DNA from: Thermodesulfobacteriota bacterium
Lineage (GTDB): Bacteria; Desulfobacterota; WTBG01; JAGOGO01
Direction: 5' to 3'
DNA length: 32,000 nt
NCBI GenBank assembly: GCA_026625185.1
Contig: CP113000.1
Span: forward strand, 2,982,651 to 3,014,650
Part shown: positions 4,211 through 31,997 of the stretch, one piece after another
Layout: every line of letters starts with the position of its first letter
How positions within the stretch are numbered: the first letter of the stretch is position 1
Translations under genes and position numbers: made by a program
Notes under the pieces: generated by a model
What the model saw: only the letters and a program-made list of their open reading frames with translations
Told to the model about the DNA's origin: nothing
Database searches by the model: none

Positions 4211-4951
4211 TTATCCGATCGTGCCTAACTGTTCGCTTATCCGACCAAATCGCCTTTCACGGCTCTGATAATGTATCAAGGCTTGAACCATATCCTCCCT
4301 TTTAAAATCAGGCCAAAGAATTTCGGTAACATAAATTTCAGTATATGCCATCTGCCAGAGAAGAAAATTACTCAATCGCATTTCCCCACTGGTGCGAATT
4401 AAAAGGTCAGGATCAGGGAGATCCTTGGTAAACAAATAGCTTGAAAAAACTTTTTCCGTAATGCCGTCTTCCTTTAAACTGCCTTGTTTTACAGCTTGCA
4501 CTATTTTTTTTACGGCTCGGATAATTTCATCCCTTCCCCCATAACTCAAAGCCAAATTTACGATCATTCCTTTACAGTTTTTAGTCTGTTCTACAGTTTG
4601 ATTTATTATCCTAGCTAACGATGGGGGCATATCGTCGATATTCCCAATCGTCTTCAAGCAAATATTATTTTTCAAAAGTTCTTTTGACTCTTTAACAATA
4701 TACTTTTTAAGCAGATTCATGAGTGCTTGGACTTCTTTTTTCGGCCGTCTCCAGTTTTCAATCGAAAATGCGTAAAGGGTAAGCACTTTAATCCCTGTTT
4801 CCCCACAAAATTTAACGATCTCACGAGCGGATTCAATCCCTTTTTCATGGCCAACAATCCGTTCTAAGTTTCTATTTTTGGCCCACCGGCCATTCCCATC
4901 CATTATGACGGCAATATGCTGAGGAAGTTTTTCTTTATCTAAATTTTTCAT
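4211..4951 (-). CDS. uppS: di-trans,poly-cis-undecaprenyl-diphosphate synthase
   Basis: 246 aa. HIAVIMDGNGRWA, TLYAFSIENWRRP and IRTSGEMRLSNFLLWQ are classic cis-prenyltransferase motifs. Confidence 0.95.
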   Translation of the reverse strand: MKNLDKEKLPQHIAVIMDGNGRWAKNRNLERIVGHEKGIESAREIVKFCGETGIKVLTLYAFSIENWRRPKKEVQALMNLLKKYIVKESKELLKNNICLKTIGNIDDMPPSLARIINQTVEQTKNCKGMIVNLALSYGGRDEIIRAVKKIVQAVKQGSLKEDGITEKVFSSYLFTKDLPDPDLLIRTSGEMRLSNFLLWQMAYTEIYVTEILWPDFKREDMVQALIHYQSRERRFGRISEQLGTIG

Positions 4952-5210
4952 TATAAAATTATAGCAGGGATATGCACTGCCCTATGTCCAAAATTTCAAG
5001 AAAACTGCCATCCCGTAAAGTAAACTCAATCAATTCCTCAGGTTCTGGGCTCGAAAAGCATAATTCCTTTAACATCAAAGAAAGCATGAGGTTTCAATAA
5101 AAAAACATCTAAAGGGGATAAAGAAAATGCGGAAGAAAATATTTTTTTATCAATGTTTAAATTAAAAATCTTATTAAGGTGGGCTTTCGCACGATAACGC
5201 TTTCCCTTCC

Positions 5211-5768
5211 CTATATTGCCATTAATTCTTTTTCCTTTTCAATAAAAAGCGCTTCTGCTTTTTCAATATATTCGTCAGTAATTTGTTGGACCTGGTCGTG
5301 ATCGGCAAAATATTCATCTTCTGAAATTTCTTTATCTTTTTTAAAATCTTTGAGCTTCTCGTTAATATCCCTCCGGATGTTTCTTAAGGTAACTTTAGCT
5401 TTCTCGGCTACCTTTCCGATAACTTTAACAAGCTCCTTTCTCCTTTCCTCAGTGAGCGATGGTATTGGTATCCGGATAATTTTTCCGTCCGTCGCAGGTG
5501 TGAGACCTAAATCAGACCTTAGGATAGCTTTCTCAATATCGCCAATGATCTTGGTATCCCACGGTTGGATAGTTATCAAACGACTATCCGGAATCGCGAG
5601 AGTTGAAACTTGGTTGAGCGGCACAACCGAACCATAATAATTAACTTTTATTCCTTCGAGTAATGACAGGGATGCTCTTCCCGTCCTCACTCGACCAAAT
5701 TCATGCTTGGTGTTTTCGAGAGCTTTTTCCATTTCCTCCCGCATTTTTTTTTCTAATTCTTTATTCAT
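5211..5768 (-). CDS. frr: ribosome recycling factor
   Basis: The ORF track extends to 5900, but that extension overlaps pyrH in another frame. Met45 (ATG at 5768) gives MNKELEKKMREEMEKALE..., a normal 185-aa Frr, starting 5 nt after the pyrH stop. Confidence 0.93.
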   Translation of the reverse strand: MNKELEKKMREEMEKALENTKHEFGRVRTGRASLSLLEGIKVNYYGSVVPLNQVSTLAIPDSRLITIQPWDTKIIGDIEKAILRSDLGLTPATDGKIIRIPIPSLTEERRKELVKVIGKVAEKAKVTLRNIRRDINEKLKDFKKDKEISEDEYFADHDQVQQITDEYIEKAEALFIEKEKELMAI

Positions 5769-5772
5769 CGTA

Positions 5773-6489
5773 TTACCCCTCAATAATGGTTCCCACCTGG
5801 TTGCCCAATAAAACCCGTTTAATATTATTGGGAACAGTGAGATTAAAGATAAATACCGGAAGATGGTTATCCATACAAAGGGAAATGGCGGTTGAATCAA
5901 TTACCTTGCAGTTTTTATTGAGATACTCTAAATACGTGAGCCGGTCAAACTTTACTGCCTCCTTATTTAAAAGCGGATCAGAGTCATAAACTCCGTCAAC
6001 CTTGGTAGCTTTGAGTATCGCCTCAGCACCAATCTCCATTGCCCGCAAAGCAGCTGCCGTGTCACTCGAAAAATAAGGATTACCTGTCCCACCGGCAAAA
6101 ATAACTACTCGTTTTTTTTCCAAATGGCGAATCGCGCGCCGTCTTATGTAAGGCTCGGCGACCTGATGCATCTCAATCGCGGAAAGAACTCGGGTGGGAA
6201 TATTTCGGTTTTCAAAGGCATTTTGAAGCGCCAGGCTGTTGATAACCGTAGCTAACATCCCCATATAATCGCCCGAAGCGCGATCTAATCCTTCAGCTGT
6301 CCCCAATACTCCTCGAAAGATATTTCCCCCTCCAATCACTAAGGCCAACTGTATACCAAGTTCATAGATATCACGAATCTCTTCAGAGATTTTACTAATG
6401 GCCTTGGTATCAATACCAAAGCCTTTCTCTCCGGCCAGTACTTCTCCGCTTAATTTGATGAGCACTCTACGAAAAACAGTATCAGCCAT
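5773..6489 (-). CDS. pyrH: UMP kinase
   Basis: 238 aa. [17 protein letters not shown] and [20 protein letters not shown] motifs. Confidence 0.95.
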
Positions 6490-8428: not shown

Positions 8429-8470
8429 GGCCAACTCGCCGGATATAAAGGCGATAGGCCTTTTTTATTT
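8429..8470 (+). terminator. Rho-independent-terminator-like hairpin plus T tract; first block of repeat module copy 1
   Basis: GGCCAACTCGCC-GGATATAA-GGCGATAGGCC is followed by TTTTTTATTTT. A collinear covarying counterpart lies at 25103-25140. Confidence 0.55.
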
Positions 8471-8760
8471 TCAAAAACTAGTCCCCTCTCGAATAGGGGT
8501 GGCGCGAAGCGCCGGGGTGTGTTAAATCCATTCTTGAGAGGGGTGTCACAAAGTGACGGGGTGTGTAAGAATGGGGTTTGCGTTTTTAAGAAATATGATA
8601 GTGGTGTTATATTGATCCATACAAGACACCGGTATAAATTAAATATACTATATTAACAATCTGTTAGGTAGTATTCCTAAAGTTGTTTTTAGGTTTCTTA
8701 TATTGCAAAACTTCTATTTTGCGTCTTATACGGATCAATATAATCATTGTTGCCTTGTAA
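8429..8760 (+). repeat. Composite repeat module, copy 1 (hairpin/T tract, two GGGGT-hairpin-GGGGTGTGTAA units, 19-nt TTATATTGATCCRTAYAAG motifs)
   Basis: Blocks are collinear with 25103-25340. Motif copies lie at 8607-8625 (+), 8725-8743 (inverted) and 8696-8704 (partial). TATATTAACAAT..GTTAGG lies at 8649-8668. Confidence 0.8.
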
Positions 8761-8776
8761 GATGGATTGACCATTG

Positions 8777-8814
8777 TTGACATATGAAGCCTATACACGT
8801 ATATTATACGTATA
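8777..8814 (+). promoter_or_regulatory. sigma70-like promoter with overlapping operator-like palindrome for the antitoxin/mazF pair
   Basis: TTGACA (8777-8782), a 17-nt spacer and TATATT (8800-8805). The palindrome ACGTATA-T-TATACGT overlaps the -10. AGGAGG lies 6 nt before the ATG at 8826. Confidence 0.6.
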
Positions 8815-8825
8815 GGAGGTGTGCT

Positions 8826-9056
8826 ATGCAAAAAAAGTTGACCATTACTATCGACGAAGAGGTTTATGAGGGGCTTTATAAGAATATTGGCCCTCGGAAA
8901 ATCAGCAGGTATATTCAAGAAGTTGTCCGTCCGCTTGTCATTCGCCCAAACCTTGATTCAGCTTACGCCGAAATGGCAAAAGATAAAAGACGGGAAAAGG
9001 AAACGGAAGAATGGGCTGAGATAACCTTTTTGGATGTGGCACATGAAACGCTCTGA
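8826..9056 (+). CDS. type II antitoxin, ribbon-helix-helix type, partner of MazF/PemK
   Basis: 76 aa starting MQKKLTITIDEEVYEGL (RHH beta-strand pattern), with an acidic C-terminus. Strong SD. It overlaps the downstream mazF start. The ORF-track start at 8784 lacks an SD. Confidence 0.75.
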   Translation: MQKKLTITIDEEVYEGLYKNIGPRKISRYIQEVVRPLVIRPNLDSAYAEMAKDKRREKETEEWAEITFLDVAHETL

Positions 9057-9366
9057 GGTGTGGTGGGTTAATTTTGATCCCTCAGTCCGAGGAGAAATCC
9101 GGAAGAAGCGTCCTGCCGTGATTATTAGTAATGACTCCTCAAACAAGTTCCTTAATATAGTTCAGGTTGTTCCTCTAACCGGCAAAACAGAACGCCTCTA
9201 TCCCAGCGAGGCCTTGGTGGTTTTTGAAGGAAAAGAAAGTAAAGCAATGGCGGATCAATTAGCCACCGTCAGCAAGATGCGACTCTTTAAACGGGCAGGA
9301 ATTCTTTCAGCCAAAGACATGCAACGAATTGAAGAGGCTGTTAAAATACAACTCGATATTGCCTAA
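9043..9366 (+). CDS. mazF: MazF/PemK-family mRNA interferase toxin
   Basis: MKRSEVWWVNFDPSVRGEIRKKRPAVIISND...VVPLT is the MazF/PemK signature. The start could be 9034 or 9043, and either overlaps the antitoxin stop. Confidence 0.88.
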   Translation: MKRSEVWWVNFDPSVRGEIRKKRPAVIISNDSSNKFLNIVQVVPLTGKTERLYPSEALVVFEGKESKAMADQLATVSKMRLFKRAGILSAKDMQRIEEAVKIQLDIA

Positions 9367-9514: not shown

Positions 9515-9790
9515 ATGCGTTTTGCGGGCATAAAAGAACTAAAACAAGAAACCATGGACCTTATAAAAGAATCTAAACAGAATGATATTTTCATCACCTC
9601 CTACGGAAAGCCGGTAGCCGTCCTCCACCATATTACTGAAGATGATCTTGCCGATTATCTGATTGAAAATGATCCGGAGTTTAAAAGCCGGATCGAGGAA
9701 GCGTTTGCCGACTACACCGCCAAAGGCGGTATAACCGCAGAGACCATGATAAAGAAATTAAAAAAACGCAGTGGAACCAAAAAAGTTTAA
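9515..9790 (+). CDS. Phd/YefM-family type II antitoxin
   Basis: 91 aa. IKELKQETMDLIKESKQNDIFITSYGKPVAVL is the Phd/YefM N-terminal fold pattern. It overlaps the downstream toxin gene by 20 nt. Confidence 0.85.
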   Translation: MRFAGIKELKQETMDLIKESKQNDIFITSYGKPVAVLHHITEDDLADYLIENDPEFKSRIEEAFADYTAKGGITAETMIKKLKKRSGTKKV

Positions 9791-10064
9791 CATTGTCTTT
9801 GCCGGTTCTGCCCAGCGGGACTTAGAGCGCTTCGAGGCTGAGACTGCTTTACAGGTGGTGAAGGATATTAAATCCCACTTGGAAACCTCCCCCCTCGGAT
9901 TTAGGAAAACCAGGATAAAAAAATTAACCGGCTTCTCCCCGCCTCTTTACCGCCTTCGAAGCGGTGACTTTCGCGCGTATTATCGCATCCTCGCTCATAA
10001 GGTTATTATTCTAACGATCACCCATAAAAAAGACAGCGAAAAATTTTTAAAAAAGGTGAAATGA
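9771..10064 (+). CDS. relE: RelE/ParE-family type II toxin
   Basis: 97 aa with a GTG start. YRLRSGDFRAYYRI...VIILTITHKKD is the RelE/ParE C-terminal signature. Confidence 0.85.
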   Translation: MEPKKFNIVFAGSAQRDLERFEAETALQVVKDIKSHLETSPLGFRKTRIKKLTGFSPPLYRLRSGDFRAYYRILAHKVIILTITHKKDSEKFLKKVK

Positions 10065-10083: not shown

Positions 10084-10214
10084 GAGACTGTGTCGTAATC
10101 CAAAAATTGTGGGTAGCCGCAGCCTTTAGGCTGCGTAACATATTGAAATTACATATCCGAGAAGCGCAAGCTAAAAGCTTGCGGCTACCAAAGGGTTTAT
10201 TATTTCACAGTCTC
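10084..10214. repeat. 131-bp compound palindrome (MITE-like or long attC-like element)
   Basis: Terminal inverted repeats GAGACTGTG-nnn-TAAT (10084-10099) and ATTA-nnn-CACAGTCTC (10199-10214). Inside are two inverted subunits, GTAGCCGCAGCCTTTAGGCTGCG and CGCAAGCTAAAAGCTTGCGGCTAC, each itself a hairpin. Confidence 0.7.
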
Positions 10215-10791
10215 ATGGCCTCACTTATGGATGGCGCTGGTTTGCGTTTAATGGAATGCCTGCGGCTCCGGGTGCAGGATGTTGACTTTGGACGAAACGA
10301 GATTACCGTCCGGGACGGGAAAGGTTTTCAGGACCGAGTGACGATCCTGCCTGAATCACTCAAAAAACCCCTTCAGGATTACCTGCGAAAGGTTAAGGCG
10401 ATTCACGAAAAGGATTTGTCCGCTGGTTTGGGGCGCGTGCAAATGCCCTACGCGCTTGATCGCAAGTACCCGCACGCCCCGCTGGCAGTTGGTATTTCCC
10501 CAGGAAAAGAGGTGGAAAAACACTAAAACAGGGCAGGAAGGGCGTCACCATGTTCATGAAACCATTCTGCAAAGAGCAGTGAGGGAAGCAGTCAAAAAAG
10601 CTGATATCGTTAAGCACATTGGTTGTCACACTTTCCGCCATTCATTTGCGACTCATCTTCTGGAAAACGGTTATGACATACTAACAATTCAGAAATTATT
10701 GGGACACAAAGAAGATAGCACAACAATGATTTATACACACGTTTTGAGCAAAGGCGGGCATGGGGTTCGGAGTCCAATTGACGAGCTTTAA
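10212..10791 (+). pseudogene. intI: integron integrase (IntI, tyrosine recombinase) remnant: 5'-truncated and frameshifted
   Basis: LMASLMDGAGLRLMECLRLRVQDVDFGRNEITVRDGKG is followed by the IntI-specific insertion [10 protein letters not shown] / RWQLVFP, then [19 protein letters not shown] and [14 protein letters not shown]. Roughly 130 N-terminal residues are missing. The frame changes near 10470-10485, within GCCCCGC. Confidence 0.85.
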
Positions 10792-10948
10792 CCGGCTTAT
10801 ACAGTCTGTATAAGACCGGAGCTATCAAAACAACAAAATGGTTTAACAATATAATATTATATGATATTTATAATTTATTAGAAAAAATCGAAAACGTCTT
10901 ATACAGAAAGCAACAGTCTGTGTTTGCTGTATTATACAGACTGTATAA
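10792..10948 (+). promoter_or_regulatory. palindrome-rich AT-rich spacer (attI-like or operator region)
   Basis: CCGG-CTTATACAGTCTGTATAAG-(A)CCGG at 10792-10819, half site CGTCTTATACAG at 10895-10906, and TTATACAGACTGTATAA at 10932-10948. Confidence 0.45.
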
Positions 10949-10989
10949 TCAGTGTTGGGCGTCTCGGAATAGGGTAAGGGAAACGAAAC

Positions 10990-11397
10990 ATGACAATAAT
11001 GGACATGATTTGGGTAGCAGTAGCGTCGCTGCTTCATCCGATAACGACAGAATCAACAACAGTGACACGTGGCCAGATTGAATCACAAGTGTTAGAGCTA
11101 TTTGGCACGTCAATTACACCAGTGATGATTGAGAAACACTTGGTCAGTTTCGAGGATCGACAAGCTGATAAAGCAAATCCACGACGCGGCGGCAGTCGAA
11201 ATCGCTACCTATTCCGGACAGAGAATGGGAGAACTCCATCGCGTCAAGGCAGGTTTCGTCTCTATAAACAGGCTGATTCAACACATGACGGATGGGAGAA
11301 AACTGGCCCTACGCATCCTGAGCCCAGTGCCATCGAGCCAGAATACCGACCGCTTATAGAATGGTACAAAGCTCAATATGCGGATGCAGTTGGTTAA
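10990..11397 (+). CDS. hypothetical protein (cassette-like ORF, function unknown)
   Basis: 135-aa ORF between the intI remnant and an attC site. No motif I can name with confidence. G+C is higher than in the flanks. Confidence 0.6.
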   Translation: MTIMDMIWVAVASLLHPITTESTTVTRGQIESQVLELFGTSITPVMIEKHLVSFEDRQADKANPRRGGSRNRYLFRTENGRTPSRQGRFRLYKQADSTHDGWEKTGPTHPEPSAIEPEYRPLIEWYKAQYADAVG

Positions 11398-11412
11398 TTC
11401 TTATGGATTTTA

Positions 11413-11496
11413 CGCCCAACAAACGCTTCGAGAGGGACGCTCCAACAGCCGGCTTCGCCGCCTGTTTCCGCGCCCCTCAAGCTTAACGTTGGCGCG
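11413..11496 (+). other. integron attC recombination site (VCR-like)
   Basis: R'' GCCCAAC (11414-11420, fits RYYYAAC) is followed by AAACGCTTCGAGAGGGAC. On the other arm, CCCCTCAAGC-TTAAC precedes R' GTTGGCG (11488-11494). The arms pair imperfectly with unpaired bases. The site starts 16 nt after the ORF stop. Confidence 0.75.
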
Positions 11497-25102: not shown

Positions 25103-25140
25103 GCCAAATCACCTGATTTGAAGGTGATGGCCTTTTTTGT
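25103..25140 (+). terminator. Rho-independent-terminator-like hairpin plus T tract; first block of repeat module copy 2
   Basis: GCCAAATCACC-TGATTTGA-AGGTGATGGCC followed by TTTTTTGTTTTG. It is collinear with 8429-8470, and the stem changes are compensatory. Confidence 0.55.
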
Positions 25141-25340
25141 TTTGTGCCGAGATCCGGGATGCATAAAAATTAATCCCCTCTTTGAGAGGGGTATCACCAC
25201 GTGAAGGGGTGTGTAAAGTTCCGGGGTATTATATTGATCCATATAAGAATATTTAAAATAGATTATATTAACAATAGTTAGGTTTCTTATACGGATTAGG
25301 CAACCAATTTGGGGCCTTATATTGATCCGTATAATAACTG
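25103..25340 (+). repeat. Composite repeat module, copy 2
   Basis: One CCCCTCT/AGAGGGG hairpin plus a GGGGT-ATCAC-CAC-GTGAA-GGGGTGTGTAAA unit (25175-25216). 19-nt motifs at 25229-25247 and 25316-25334, with a partial inverted copy at 25286-25296. TATATTAACAAT-AGTTAGG at 25264-25282. Confidence 0.8.
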
Positions 25341-25376
25341 TTCTACGTAACAAATATAAATTAAGACAATACAAAG

Positions 25377-26570
25377 ATGATCAATTACTCAGCTTTTATA
25401 AACGAATTCTCAGAACACTGCCCTTTCGAGGCGTTCTATGAAAAAGGCATTACTTCAGACGATATAAAAGCAGCCATACTCAAGACTTTTGAACCCTATT
25501 TTGAAAACCAGGAACGACTAAAAGAATATTCCATGCTATGGCTAATCGGTGGTTGGGTTAACTTTTCCAAATTTAAGACAAATCAATGGCACTTTGATAA
25601 ATTTGAAAAATGCCTGGCTTTTCTGAATCAGGCGAAGAAACAAAATGTGCCGTGCTGTAACATTGTTGCCGAGTGGCTTCCAGAATTTAACAGAGGTCTT
25701 TCAAAATTCTGGAGCTTCAGAAAATTGTCTAAGGATTTGGAAGAATTAGATAACGAAGAGTTCTTAGAAGAGAGTTTAAAGCTGATTGGTCAAATTACAG
25801 AAGGCATAACGAAAGCATACCTCAGATGCCTGCTGCATATAAGCAGAGTTTCAAGGGGGCAGCAGGTTAGCAAACAGACGATTATAAATCTTGATTTGGG
25901 CATTGTTGTTGATGAATTAATCAGAAACACCAGTTTTCCCGAATTGTTTTCGCCCCCACCGTGGAACATTAAATTAAGCCAGTGGCGAAATATTGCATAT
26001 CATCATAATGCAAAACTCGAAAACGATAATTTTCTTTGCTGGTAGGGGAAAGATCCGAATATAAGGACATGCACGCTTAGCCGAAATGAACTACTTGAGG
26101 CAGTGCGGTCCATTTTCAACATCTATAACGTCTTTCTAAATGTTGAACTAGTTTATGTCTTTGACAACTTGCCTGAATACCAAGCTGCACTCACTGCCGC
26201 TGGGATAGCAGACACTAGTTTACGAGAGGAAGCAAGTATTCTCGACCTTTTCGCTGGCATAAATTCTCAAGGCTTCAAAATTATCGACTTTTCTAAAGAT
26301 GACACTGGCTGCAAATTGACAGTTCAAGATATGACTGACGGAGATATCAAGAGGCGCGCAATTCATTCGTCACAGTTTCTATATTCGTTGTGGTTCTATA
26401 CTCAATCGCCACAACTGAGTGTTGAGTACAGACTGAAAAATGGACAATCCTATCTAATTTCCAGGACAAATAAAGACGTTTGTGAAAAGATTGGTAATAA
26501 CGAACGCGGTATAGAGTATCTTGCGGAAAAAGTCGAATTCAAATTTATAAATAATGATACAAAAACGTAG
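25377..26570 (+). pseudogene. 397-codon reading frame with a HEPN-like Rx4H motif, interrupted by one in-frame TAG (26043-26045)
   Basis: The ORFs at 25377..26045 and 26103..26570 share one frame (26103-25377=726). Only the TAG separates them, and the second ORF has no ATG or SD. RNIAYH lies at codons 204-209 (25986-26003). Confidence 0.6.
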
Positions 26571-26650
26571 AACAATCAAATCCACTGGACAGCGAATAGC
26601 CGCTTTTTTGAATTCAATAGCCGGTTGCCGCTGCCAGTGATTTGTTCCGT
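26567..26650 (+). other. attC-like 84-bp imperfect palindrome overlapping the ORF stop codon
   Basis: GTAGAAC (26567-26573) faces GTTCCGT (26644-26650). Pairing blocks are AACAA/TTGTT, ATC/GAT, CACTGG/CCAGTG and CAGCG/CGCTG, with unpaired bases. Same length as the attC at 11413-11496. Confidence 0.45.
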
Positions 26651-26922
26651 TACGAGAAAATAAAATTGTTGATTTTCAATAACGTTCCAAGCTATTCATT
26701 CGATCATAAAAAATGATTAACTACCACAATGATTCTATTAAACGATAGGTTCAAAGCAAATACCTTGGAGGGAAAAACATGGAAGAAATTAACGCCTTCA
26801 TTAAGTTTGCGAATGAAAATAAATCGCGCTGCTAAAAAAAGCTAAAAAATCCATTAAACTTCTCGAGGCAATCAGACAGCGAGAAGTTGTAACCCAACTG
26901 TATTTCAGGTCGGAGCATACTT

Positions 26923-28301: not shown

Positions 28302-28446
28302 AGGAATATACGTTTCGGCCATCTTCGAATAGCTTCTCAAAAACTGTTTGCAATCAGCCGCCAGAAGTAGGAAAATAACCAACCAAAAATGTTTCAGGTC
28401 TGGAAGACGCACGACGCGCAGCGCATGGTAAGACCCGAGAGAAAAT

Positions 28447-30360
28447 ATGGGACTACTCCTTATCAATGATGTTTCACTGAGTTTCGGCGGCCCACCGCTT
28501 TTGGATGGGGTTACGCTCCAGATCGAGGCCGGAGAACGGATCGGCCTCCTGGGTCGTAACGGCTCAGGCAAATCCACCCTCATGAAAATGCTGGTTGGTC
28601 AAATAACGCCGGATTCCGGCGAAATTATCCGTTATGGCGAGGTGAAGATCGCACTCTTGCCGCAAGAGGTCCCCGATGACCTGCCGGGCACGGTCTATGA
28701 CGTGATCGCCACGGGTGGACGGGAACACGTGGAGCTCCTCAGTGAATACCATAACCTTGCACTGCAAATTGCCGGAGCCAGCGATAATGGCTTCATCAAA
28801 AAGCTCGAAGCCGTCCAGCACCGGATCGAGGCAGCCGGGGCCTGGGATTACCACCAACGGGTTGAAAGGGCAATCGCACGGGCCGAACTGGATGAAAATG
28901 CCCAATTCCGGGGTTTGTCAGCCGGCATGAAACGCCGGGTTTTTCTGGCCCGGGCACTGGTAAATGACCCGGACCTCCTGCTGCTCGACGAGCCCACCAA
29001 CCACCTTGATGTCAGCACCATCCTCTGGCTTGAGGACTTCCTGCTGAAGTTTGAAAAGACGCTCATGTTCGTGACCCATGACCGGGCCTTTCTCCAGCGT
29101 TTGGCAACCCGGATCGTGGAAATCGACCGGGGCCGTCTGCTCTCCTTCGCCTGTACCTACCGGACCTACCTTGAACGGAGGCAGGCCTTGCTGGAGGCGG
29201 AAGAGAAGCAGTGGCATGATTTTGATAAGAAATTATCCAAAGAGGAAACCTGGGTCAGGCAAGGGGTCAAGGCGCGTCGCACCCGCAACGAAGGCCGGGT
29301 CCGGGCGTTGATTCAGATTCGCCGGGAGCGGGCCCGCCGGCAGGAGCAGGCGGGCGTCTCCCGACTGAAGATCCAGGAAGCGGAACGGAGCGGGCGGATG
29401 GTTGTGGAGGCAAAGGCAGTCTCATTCGCGTGGAGTGATACAAAGATCGTTGATAAATTCTCCACCACTATCCTTCGCGGCGATAAGGTGGGTGTTATCG
29501 GGCCAAACGGCTCCGGCAAAACCACCCTGCTCAAGATCCTCCTCAATGCCCTACCGCCCCAACAAGGAACCGTCCGACTGGGTAACAATATCAGCATCGC
29601 TTACTTTGATCAGCTCCGCGCGCAGCTCGATGTAAATAAAACCCTCCGGGAGAATATCGGCGGGGGCAACGACACGGTCACCATTGGCGGGAACCCGCGG
29701 AATGTGGTAGGGTATCTTCAGGATTTTCTTTTTTCACCGGAGCGGATTATGTCTCCCGCCAGTTCTCTCTCCGGCGGTGAGCGCAATCGCCTGCTTCTGG
29801 CGAAACTCTTCGCCATTCCATCGAATGTGCTGGTCCTCGATGAGCCTACCAATGACCTTGATGCGGAAACGCTGGAATTGCTCGAAGACCGGCTCATAAA
29901 TTTTAAGGGTACGATTCTACTGGTCAGTCACGACCGCGAATTACTCAATAATGTGGTCACCTCGACCATTGTCTTTGAGGATGATGGACGGTTAGAGGAG
30001 TATGTCGGCGGCTACGACGATTGGCTGAGACAGCGGAATATGACCGTGGAACCCGTGAAGTCGACCCCTCCAAAAAATCCGAAACAAAAGAAGGAAAAAT
30101 CCCCGAAGGAGAAGACGAAACTCTCCTTTAAAGAGACCCGGGAGCTTGAAACCCTGCCATTGATCATCGAAACCTTGGAGGAAGAGAAAAAGCGCCTAAC
30201 CGAAACCCTCAATTCCTCTGAATTCTATGCCAGCCGCGATCTGGGCAAGATAAATGCGGCTAACGATCGGTTAGGCGCCCTGGAAAAGGAGCTTGATGAA
30301 GCCTATTACCGCTGGGATGAGCTTGAAAACATGGCTGCCAAATTCAGGGACAATCCTTAA
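28447..30360 (+). CDS. uup: ABC-F family ATPase Uup
   Basis: Two ABC cassettes (GRNGSGKST / LSAGMKRR / LLLLDEPTNHLD and GPNGSGKTT / LSGGERNR / VLVLDEPTNDLD). Lysine-rich linker and C-terminal coiled coil. No TM domain. Confidence 0.9.
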   Translation: MGLLLINDVSLSFGGPPLLDGVTLQIEAGERIGLLGRNGSGKSTLMKMLVGQITPDSGEIIRYGEVKIALLPQEVPDDLPGTVYDVIATGGREHVELLSEYHNLALQIAGASDNGFIKKLEAVQHRIEAAGAWDYHQRVERAIARAELDENAQFRGLSAGMKRRVFLARALVNDPDLLLLDEPTNHLDVSTILWLEDFLLKFEKTLMFVTHDRAFLQRLATRIVEIDRGRLLSFACTYRTYLERRQALLEAEEKQWHDFDKKLSKEETWVRQGVKARRTRNEGRVRALIQIRRERARRQEQAGVSRLKIQEAERSGRMVVEAKAVSFAWSDTKIVDKFSTTILRGDKVGVIGPNGSGKTTLLKILLNALPPQQGTVRLGNNISIAYFDQLRAQLDVNKTLRENIGGGNDTVTIGGNPRNVVGYLQDFLFSPERIMSPASSLSGGERNRLLLAKLFAIPSNVLVLDEPTNDLDAETLELLEDRLINFKGTILLVSHDRELLNNVVTSTIVFEDDGRLEEYVGGYDDWLRQRNMTVEPVKSTPPKNPKQKKEKSPKEKTKLSFKETRELETLPLIIETLEEEKKRLTETLNSSEFYASRDLGKINAANDRLGALEKELDEAYYRWDELENMAAKFRDNP

Positions 30361-30425
30361 GTGACATTGCGACCTCACCGGATATGAACGGCGGAACGCG
30401 AAAACCAAAAAAAAAGCGAATCATA

Positions 30426-31997
30426 ATGACTAAAACATCCAAACCAATCGAAATTGACTTCAATCCCGAATTCCAGCGGGCGCTCGCGCTGATGGAAGAC
30501 ACAGCCCAAAACCTGCTGATTACCGGCCGCGCGGGCACGGGCAAATCTACACTCCTTAATTATTTTCGCGATCATACGAAGAAAAAAGTAGTCGTGCTGG
30601 CTCCAACCGGCGTAGCGGCAATCAATGTTGCCGGCCAGACGATTCATTCTTTCTTTCATTTTAAACCCAGTGTTACCCTGGCATCGATCAAAAAGAAAAA
30701 GAGCGCGGCAAAAGAAAAGACTACTCTTTATAAAAAGCTCACCACCATTATTATCGACGAAATTTCGATGGTGCGGGCTGATCTGCTGGATTGCGTTGAT
30801 AAATTTCTGCGGCTCAACGGCCCGAAGCAAAAAAAGCCTTTTGGCGGCGTGCAGATGATCTTCATCGGCGATCTCTATCAGCTCCCGCCCGTCGTTACCA
30901 GCCAGGAAAGGGAAATCTTCCGGACGCACTATCCCAACCCTTATTTTTTCAGCGCCAAGGTAGGGGAGACACTGGATTTGGAATTTATCGAGCTGGAAAA
31001 GGTGTATCGCCAGAAAGATGATGAGTTTATCCGGCTGCTCAATGCTATCCGCAACCGTACCGTAACGGATGCTGATCTGGCTCTCTTCAACCGCCGCTGT
31101 GACCCGGGTTTTTCTCCCCCTGCCGGTGATTTTTATCTTTCGCTCACCAGCACGAACGATCTGGCCGACACGATCAACGCAAAACGTCTGGCGGAGCTGC
31201 CGGGTAAAATCTGGAATGCCAGCGGCGTGATCGAAGGCGATTTCGGCAAGGAATATCTGCCGACCGCGGTTGATCTTAAACTGAATAAAGGCGCGCAAAT
31301 CATGCTTCTCAATAACGATTCCTACGGCCAGTGGATCAACGGCACGATTGGAGAGGTTAAAAAATTTGAAACGGATGATGAGGGAAACGAGGTGATTGTC
31401 GCCGAACTGGATAATGGTGAGAAGGCGCACATCACTCCCTATACCTGGAAAATATACCATTTCTTTCTGAAAAACGAGGAGCTGCGCTCCGAAGAAGTCG
31501 GCTCGTTCACGCAATATCCGATACGTTTGGCTTTTGCGGTGACCATCCATAAAAGTCAGGGAAAAACATTTGAAAAGGTTATCATTGATGTGGGACGCGG
31601 CACCTTCGCCCACGGGCAAATATACGTGGCCCTTTCCCGCTGTACCTCGTTGGAAAGCATTGTCCTGAAGCAACAATTAAAGAAAAGCCATATCCTGATG
31701 GATTGGCAGGTGGTCAAGTTTTTAACCGGCATGCAATACGCCCGGGCGGCAATTCATTTATCACGCGAAGATAAGCTTAACCTTATCAATGACGCCATTA
31801 AACAAAAGAAAAATCTCGACATTGTTTATCTCAAAGCAAAAGACGAAAAATCACGGCGTACGATACTGCCGCTGTTTATGGGCGACATGGAATACAACGG
31901 GACCCATTACCTGGGGCTGCAAGCCTATTGCCTGACGCGCCGGCAGAAACGTATTTTCAATGTCGATAGAATCCTCGAAATAAGCAGCTCAGCATAA
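30426..31997 (+). CDS. PIF1/RecD-like SF1B DNA helicase with C-terminal WYL-like domain
   Basis: Walker A GRAGTGKST, Walker B IIIDEISMV, FGGVQMIFIGDLYQLPPV and AVTIHKSQGKTF. The C-terminus is IVYLKAKDEKSRRTILPLFM...HYLGLQAYCLTRRQKRIFNVDRILEI. ATG at 30426 is preferred over 30384. Confidence 0.85.
   Translation: MTKTSKPIEIDFNPEFQRALALMEDTAQNLLITGRAGTGKSTLLNYFRDHTKKKVVVLAPTGVAAINVAGQTIHSFFHFKPSVTLASIKKKKSAAKEKTTLYKKLTTIIIDEISMVRADLLDCVDKFLRLNGPKQKKPFGGVQMIFIGDLYQLPPVVTSQEREIFRTHYPNPYFFSAKVGETLDLEFIELEKVYRQKDDEFIRLLNAIRNRTVTDADLALFNRRCDPGFSPPAGDFYLSLTSTNDLADTINAKRLAELPGKIWNASGVIEGDFGKEYLPTAVDLKLNKGAQIMLLNNDSYGQWINGTIGEVKKFETDDEGNEVIVAELDNGEKAHITPYTWKIYHFFLKNEELRSEEVGSFTQYPIRLAFAVTIHKSQGKTFEKVIIDVGRGTFAHGQIYVALSRCTSLESIVLKQQLKKSHILMDWQVVKFLTGMQYARAAIHLSREDKLNLINDAIKQKKNLDIVYLKAKDEKSRRTILPLFMGDMEYNGTHYLGLQAYCLTRRQKRIFNVDRILEISSSA

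Follow-up and report, generated by a model that had tools for sequence, protein, structure and literature searches.

The 32,000-nucleotide stretch of DNA analysed here (the window; positions 2,982,651 to 3,014,650 of contig CP113000.1, GenBank assembly GCA_026625185.1, from a Thermodesulfobacteriota bacterium) carries on its + strand, at window positions 25377-26570, a gene that is cut by one amber codon and travels in an integron cassette. Two open reading frames (ORFs), 25377-26045 and 26103-26570, belong to one frame of 397 codons whose sole internal stop is a TAG at 26043-26045 (context TGC TGG TAG GGG). The proximal part (25377-26045, 222 codons plus TAG) covers an all-alpha N-terminal domain to just past a putative catalytic motif, without its last core helix, and its 222-aa product is annotated at NCBI as a hypothetical protein of a Thermodesulfobacteriota metagenome-assembled genome. 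The distal part (26046-26570, 174 codons plus a TAG at 26568-26570) is homologous to full-length proteins along its whole length. The initial annotation, made from the letters and a list of ORFs, treated the two ORFs as one gene and judged that the GTG of the second lacks a usable Shine-Dalgarno sequence. Both judgements hold: homologues are single uninterrupted proteins of 385-401 aa and not two genes with their own starts, and upstream of the GTG at 26103 there is only a GAGG two bases away, which is poor spacing, with no in-frame ATG nearby.

A database search with the repaired frame gave 71 end-to-end matches (best match 86% identity, E 8e-233), nearly all of them uninterrupted proteins of 391-401 aa that cover 97-100% of the query. 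An exhaustive profile search returned 599 cluster representatives at E <1e-3, 299 of them at <1e-30, so the family spans about 600 clusters at 50% identity; one subgroup of ~535-545 aa carries a C-terminal extension. Members come from Thermodesulfobacteriota, Nitrospirota, Bacteroidota, Bacillota, one archaeon and one temperate phage. None was found on the 72,556 plasmids searched, and none of 38 related genome loci is of Vibrio origin. Residue conservation is counted below in an alignment of 221 members, almost all uninterrupted and ~395 aa long. Two entries, P0238 and P0240 (from a 90% cluster), were considered as further decayed copies and rejected as unrelated low-complexity peptides.

At the position of the amber codon 182 of the 221 aligned members have tyrosine and none has a stop. 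Both nearest homologues, L010 (a Thermodesulfovibrionales metagenome-assembled genome) and L006 (a metagenome contig), read TAC there, from which it follows that the lesion is a single C>G substitution, a TAC>TAG transversion that replaces Tyr223. The ratio of non-synonymous to synonymous substitution rates (dN/dS) between the window gene and these two copies is 0.09-0.10 overall and 0.067-0.093 downstream of the stop. Purifying selection has thus acted on the distal part during practically the whole of the divergence, which makes the break a young one. Among the origins that the initial annotation had offered for the TAG, a recent nonsense mutation is the one borne out by the TAC of the nearest homologues and by a dN/dS of ~0.07-0.09 even past the stop.

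A second origin offered there was sequencing error. If the stop were a sequencing or assembly artefact and the gene intact in the organism, one would expect a codon one base away from the TAC (Tyr) of the nearest homologues, as is the case. However, at least nine contigs encode exactly this 222-aa product, and the six retrieved, from six independent assemblies (four Joint Genome Institute metagenomes, NCBI GCA_029216075.1 and the Logan assembly of SRR21915714), show 100% identity over 25140-26700 and an unchanged gene order, which excludes random sequencing error. The amber site is, moreover, not a homopolymer. An artefact is hence the least probable of the alternatives that we weighed.

The third origin was low-level readthrough. 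According to it, the amber codon would be a functional safety valve, with natural, suppressor-tRNA or pyrrolysine readthrough yielding a little full-length toxin, or, in a variant, with the 222-aa product acting jointly with a C-terminal one that has its own initiation. Pyrrolysine decoding is known in some Deltaproteobacteria-type lineages. The 174 distal codons are still fully open and conserved, and the amber allele is the only one seen in the six assemblies of the organism, as readthrough would predict; an intact distal frame is, however, equally expected of a very young pseudogene. TAG is the rarest stop among the 26 ORFs of the window (TAA 15, TGA 7, TAG 4), which also speaks for a special role, yet it is a normal if minor stop here and terminates at least two ordinary genes, an rseP-like gene and a DUF1456 gene, in line with the earlier view that TAG is a genuine stop in this genome. 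A tRNA search of the whole window found no tRNA gene, and the spacing at the GTG 26103 tells against a separate C-terminal product. Besides the absence of a stop at this site from all 221 homologues, another family copy, P0016 (L007, 6001-7300; 67% identical), is frameshifted elsewhere, at about residue 275 in an A/G-rich KKGG stretch. This split may have inactivated that copy independently, or it may be a sequencing error at a homopolymer. Taken together, the lack of a homologous stop and the different position of the L007 break point to sporadic decay and not to a conserved recoding device, and we find a safety valve very improbable. Slightly less probable still is a conditional switch, in which rare readthrough would keep an HEPN-type effector sub-lethal or allow its expression only in particular conditions.

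The gene is the only one of a 1304-bp integron gene cassette at 25341-26644. Its left junction is GTTCTACGT (25340-25348, + strand), with the crossover between G25340 and T25341, and its attC site occupies 26565-26650 on the same strand, from the R'' box ACGTAGAAC (26565-26573) to the R' box GTTCCGT (26644-26650). The R'' box overlaps the gene's own stop codon and opens the downstream palindrome. GTTCTACGT is the exact reverse complement of ACGTAGAAC (9/9), each being unique in the window, a relation that would arise if the cassette begins with bases which were formerly part of the R' box in its own attC. The complementary junction pair is the same in L006, and a 51%-identical homologue, L004, has a different one, GTTATACGC upstream and GCGTATAAC just past the stop. 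The attC consists of an R-box pair (GAAC/GTTC), an unpaired spacer and an L-box stem whose 5' arm has two single-base bulges, C and A; on the bottom strand these correspond to G and T, which we take to be the canonical extrahelical base identities. Folded as DNA the site has a z-score of -3.6, and 0 of 200 shuffles fold as well.

Comparison with the nearest copies shows that the cassette moves. DNA identity to L010 and L006 (84.5%) is confined to 25330/25340-26548/26610, with unrelated flanks, and all three copies start aligning at GTTCTACGT. The attC stem of L006 carries compensatory changes (CACTGG/CCAGTG against CAGCCG/CGGCTG) and keeps both bulges in place. L006 is a three-cassette array, and the L010 homologue, the nearest of all, lies 330 bp from an integron-integrase fragment. 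An attC 3' of the ORF, G|TT boundaries, unrelated contexts with stem covariation and association with an integrase are thus all found. The attC-like palindrome noticed in the initial annotation is a real attC by its fold, boxes, bulges and covariation, and the description of the gene as mobile cargo was, if anything, understated, since the gene is an integron cassette with a remnant of an integron integrase in the same window. The GC content of the cassette is 0.39 versus 0.47 for the upstream genes. It lies in an integrase-less two-site cluster resembling a CALIN (cluster of attC sites lacking integron integrases); the nearest integrase remnant is ~15 kb away and degenerate. The cluster is flanked by housekeeping genes, ABC exporters upstream and DUF1456, CvfB and ABC-F genes downstream.

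Two motifs suggest what the intact protein may do. One is the Rx4H motif R204-N-I-A-Y-H209 (25986-26003, + strand), whose R is followed by the polar N and which lies where a short predicted helix (200-208) ends. The other, E142-G-I-T-K146 (25800-25814, + strand), corresponds to Ex3K, the second motif of HEPN domains, and lies in a long helix (126-159). R204 and H209 are each present in 220 of 220 members and N205 in 219 of them (D in one). E142 is kept in 211 of 214, and position 146 is K or R in 156 of those 214 and Q in 45. Other positions that are invariant or nearly so are G175 (219/219) and W203; E142 (with K146), G175 and R204-N205-x3-H209 make up the sole invariant residues of the family. 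AlphaFold2, run on the family alignment, gives a confident two-domain model (predicted local distance difference test, pLDDT, 94.2; predicted template modelling score, pTM, 0.90), all-alpha in residues 1-275 and alpha/beta in 284-390. The N-terminal domain predicted alone has the same secondary structure as in the full model. The predicted order of elements is a hairpin of helices 93-117 and 126-159, with E142 and K146 in its second helix, an insert (160-199), the helix 200-208, a beta-hairpin (212-234) and a helix (236-263).

HEPN domains are defined by an Rx4-6H motif whose R is immediately followed by a polar residue (N, D or H), and by a second conserved acidic residue, often within Ex3[KR], in helix 2 (PMC3710099). 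Their fold is a four-helix up-down bundle made up of two alpha-hairpins, helices 2 and 3 being separated by an insert; the Rx4-6H motif stands where helix 3 ends, and in Csx1 a beta-hairpin follows straight after it (PMC3710099). The RNase activity by which they are defined needs no metal and relies on the R and the H (PMC3710099). The family shows the Rx4-6H motif, the polar residue and the upstream Ex3[KR] in helix 2, and the elements of the AlphaFold secondary structure come in an order that fits the four-helix template, although Foldseek returned no significant HEPN structure. An HEPN-type catalytic domain thus appears well supported, if not proven, by the motifs and the predicted topology rather than by any profile or fold search.

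Some relatives lack part of this architecture. A sub-profile of residues 122-272 found only nine proteins in the protein database, most of them shorter ones with the family's motif region; none of the nine has a Pfam domain. P0215-P0217, shorter relatives of 204-265 aa, lack the first ~110-150 residues; they retain RNIA[YC]H and the beginning of the C-terminal domain, and P0215 and P0216 retain Ex3K as well. The core thus seems able to do without the five or six N-terminal helices.

The distal segment (26046-26570, + strand) would contribute to the modelled protein a strand, the last core helix (236-263) and the alpha/beta C-terminal domain (284-390), with pLDDT >90 throughout. A patch in the segment RAIHSSQFLY (R327, H330, S332 and F334) is conserved in the latter. 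No curated profile and no significant fold match was found for these ~175 codons, in which the initial annotation, too, had recognised nothing. Foldseek repeatedly proposed DHH-family domains and PD-(D/E)XK/Cas4-like nucleases for the domain; these matches are weak and not significant, and we do not rely on them. The domain may act as a sensor or regulatory module.

The surroundings of the homologues say something about how such a protein might work. Neighbours differ in every contig examined, and across 40 loci no neighbour family occupies a fixed position, that is, no conserved partner or antitoxin gene accompanies the family. The gene is therefore a stand-alone one and not half of a toxin-antitoxin pair. 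The neighbours include Eco57I-type restriction-modification genes, GmrSD, an AAA_15/AAA_21 ATPase gene, tyrosine recombinases and a group II intron. In the temperate Terrisporobacter phage TPDSL_ph1 (L054) a full-length member, 30.7% identical, is encoded at 4938-6122, in an accessory region near the integrase: two integrase genes and an invertase gene lie immediately upstream of it, and a transcriptional regulator a short way downstream.

From all of this we propose, with a probability of roughly 0.7, that the window contains a recently disarmed single-gene cassette for an HEPN-type effector. Intact members would act on their own as conflict effectors, be it of the abortive-infection, toxin or defence type, and would be borne by mobile cassettes and defence islands. 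Dimerisation of the intact protein would build a composite HEPN RNase site, the C-terminal domain would sense a trigger or gate activation, and the triggered effector would cleave RNA. The single stop, the intact homologues, the invariant motifs, the recency of the break, the structure and mobility of the cassette and the lack of a conserved partner are seen in the data, whereas the HEPN fold, the RNase activity, the defence role and the inactivity of the truncated product are inferred. In the genome of the window the TAC>TAG change at Tyr223 ends translation 14 residues past the putative catalytic His. The truncated product retains both motifs and loses the last core helix and the entire C-terminal domain, and it is very probably non-functional. 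The allele is a very recent one, apparently fixed in its lineage. Genes of this kind are costly, and their occasional loss by point mutation is to be expected.

Several points weigh against this proposal. Pfam, searched with the query and with all 66 aligned members, NCBIfam and PADLOC gave noise only. Foldseek returned nothing below E 0.03 for the full model against PDB and BFVD or for the N-terminal domain model against PDB, and Csm6 appeared only at rank 46 with a non-significant E of 3.2. A search of PDB sequences with the full or the motif-region profile gave no relevant match, and hhalign against a self-built alignment of the RnlA family gave a probability of <1%. The proximity of E142 to R204 and H209 in space is presumed. 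The loss of function of the 222-aa product is deduced from the truncation, and the defence role is argued from genomic context and precedent. Finally, since the contigs with the TAG are all 100% identical, they may stem from one clonal population and not amount to independent proof of fixation.

The negative searches lead to an explanation that keeps the nonsense mutation and the cassette and differs in the protein: it would not be an HEPN RNase but a new all-alpha fold whose conserved residues do something else, for instance bind a ligand or nucleic acid or catalyse a different reaction. In its favour, profile, profile-profile and fold searches fail to tie the family to any HEPN family, and the motif-bearing helix, with only nine residues, is unusually short. 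The C-terminal domain, moreover, has its own conserved R327/H330/S332 patch and its weak, non-significant PD-(D/E)XK/Cas4-like and DHH-like matches. On the other hand, HEPN families share little beyond the motifs and are mutually undetectable outside them (PMC3710099), so that negative profile searches and a negative hhalign comparison are consistent with HEPN. Both motifs, the polar residue, the order and helix placement, the insert and the Csx1-like beta-hairpin also all coincide here, and the motif residues together with G175 are the only invariant ones in the family. We consider a non-HEPN protein unlikely, though by no means negligible. As for the initial annotation, which had recognised the HEPN motif, it had named as speaking against it a lack of HEPN in profile or structure searches combined with a lack of conservation of the R/H pair. 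No search confirms HEPN, but the pair is invariant and has been joined by Ex3K.

HEPN-type effectors on integron cassettes have precedents. Taranis and Esos, single-gene HEPN-like integron cassettes, protect Vibrio from phages (bioRxiv 10.1101/2024.07.02.601686). Like the gene described here, Taranis (AbiJ-like) and Esos (HEPN-like only) of the V. cholerae chromosomal integron consist of one gene with an HEPN-type motif and no partner, and effectors of this type, as well as the present family, also occur in other mobile or defence contexts outside integrons. In contrast to them, our family has its own conserved alpha/beta C-terminal domain, its related loci include none from Vibrio, and the copy in the window is inactivated. 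It has no detectable sequence or profile similarity to Abi_C/AbiJ or to any PADLOC model. The 'Integron cassette HEPN' family of Gammaproteobacteria (PDB 3jrt; Anantharaman et al. 2013) was proposed to be an RNase of stress or conflict (PMC3710099). It too is an HEPN-motif protein on integron cassettes; however, our family profiles match no PDB sequence, 3jrt is not among the Foldseek matches listed (the best 50 per search), and the taxa in which we find the family, from Thermodesulfobacteriota to the one archaeon, differ from the Gammaproteobacteria of the 3jrt family.

Other HEPN proteins resemble the family in the way their domains are combined. In Csx1 and Csm6 an HEPN catalytic domain is joined to a separate controlling alpha/beta domain, a role which the C-terminal domain may play here, and in Csx1 a beta-hairpin directly follows the Rx4-6H motif. 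Unlike in these proteins, the HEPN-type domain is N-terminal, so that the domain order is reversed, there is neither a CARF signature nor a CRISPR neighbourhood, and the Foldseek match to Csm6 is the insignificant one mentioned above. RnlA and LsoA (RNase LS) are likewise multi-domain HEPN toxins with catalytic E, R and H residues, and their role is anti-phage. They require a cognate antitoxin (RnlB or LsoB), whereas the present family has no partner, and hhalign, as said, gives it hardly any probability of relationship to RnlA.

Upstream of the cassette lies a non-coding module (copy 2, 25148-25342, + strand), apparently a recombination site, which ends in the junction motif TATAATAACTGTT (25330-25342) and contains two TTATAY-N6-RTATAA palindromes, at 25229-25246 and 25317-25334 (hairpin z-scores of -3.8 to -4.1). 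Copy 1, at approximately 8458-8752 on the same strand, ends in TATAATCATTGTT and is followed by mazEF (8784-9366) and phd/parE (9515-10064) cassettes. The two modules align over ~210 nt, and similarity stops exactly at ..TGTT, after which come different cassettes, mazEF after module 1 and the HEPN-like gene after module 2. The palindrome pattern occurs four times in the window versus 0.25 expected. TATAAT-N3-TGTT occurs three times (8739-8751, 10944-10956 and 25330-25342) versus 0.1 expected, each time directly before a cassette and each time preceded by a pair of palindromes of 18-20 nt, the members of which are 68-112 AT-rich bases apart: TTATAY-N6-RTATAA at 8607/8726 and 25229/25317, and a TTATACAGTCTGTATAA-type pair at 10797/10929. 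These palindrome-pair modules may represent attI-like sites, or else the attC belonging to a non-coding cassette. A repetitive extragenic palindrome doublet (REPIN), a miniature inverted-repeat transposable element (MITE) or a pair of transcription-factor operators seems less likely for the upstream module, because the exact end of similarity at ..TGTT before different cassettes favours a recombination site. Both modules also contain a conserved double-hairpin element (8478-8568 and 25170-25216), in which CCCCTCT..AGAGGGG and a GTCAC..GTGAC-type hairpin are followed by GGGGTGTGTAA. It is tandem in module 1 and single in module 2, scores as terminator-like on the minus strand and has no Rfam match, as is true of the window as a whole.

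The rest of the degenerate integron lies downstream of module 1. MazE/MazF (8784-9056 and 9034-9366) and Phd/ParE (9515-9790 and 9771-10064), all on the + strand between module 1 and the integrase remnant, are each followed as a pair by attC-like hairpins and look like toxin-antitoxin cassettes of this integron. A decayed integron integrase at 10107-10791 (+ strand) is truncated at its 5' end and frameshifted, near 10456-10526, into two overlapping ORFs. It matches NCBIfam TIGR02249 at profile positions 118-210 (E 7.5e-34) and 210-315 (E 3.5e-47), as well as Pfam Phage_integrase, the N-terminal ~117 profile positions being missing. The remnant and the cassette next downstream point the same way, which amounts to an 'inverted intI' layout. 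This orf135 cassette (10954-11494, + strand; ORF 10990-11397, 135 aa) adjoins the remnant, has the left junction GTTGGGCG and ends in a canonical attC, whose R'' box is CGCCCAAC (11413) and whose R' box is GTTGGCG (11488); GTTGGGCG complements R'' exactly. Its attC and that of the HEPN-like cassette share their architecture, namely the R-box pair, the unpaired spacer and the bulges on the 5' arm. The 135-aa product has no Pfam or NCBIfam match.

Two further observations concern the end of the window. The ABC-F ATPase gene (28447-30360) reaches 57-61% GC over 28400-29800, compared with ~37-47% around it and 43% in the whole window, and so forms a sharp compositional island inside an apparently housekeeping gene. 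The gene at 30384-31997 (+ strand) encodes a PIF1-like helicase fused to a C-terminal WYL domain; the 433-aa ORF that it fully overlaps on the other strand (30375-31676) is probably spurious.

What befell the broken copy itself is commonplace: a single base change has silenced a conflict gene that is costly to keep. The value of the locus lies in the family to which it leads, which is uncharacterised, fairly large, absent from catalogues and probably of HEPN type with a new domain combination, and which is mobilised by integrons outside the usual Proteobacteria. That the intact proteins form a new and widespread single-protein defence system, HEPN plus sensor, present in no current catalogue, is a tentative view to which we give a little less than an even chance. 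It would fit in with recent work in which chromosomal integrons were found to store compact anti-phage systems, and would extend that finding to non-proteobacterial anaerobes. The family is in any case a testable candidate for such a single-gene system, and the natural amber allele may serve as a ready-made negative control.

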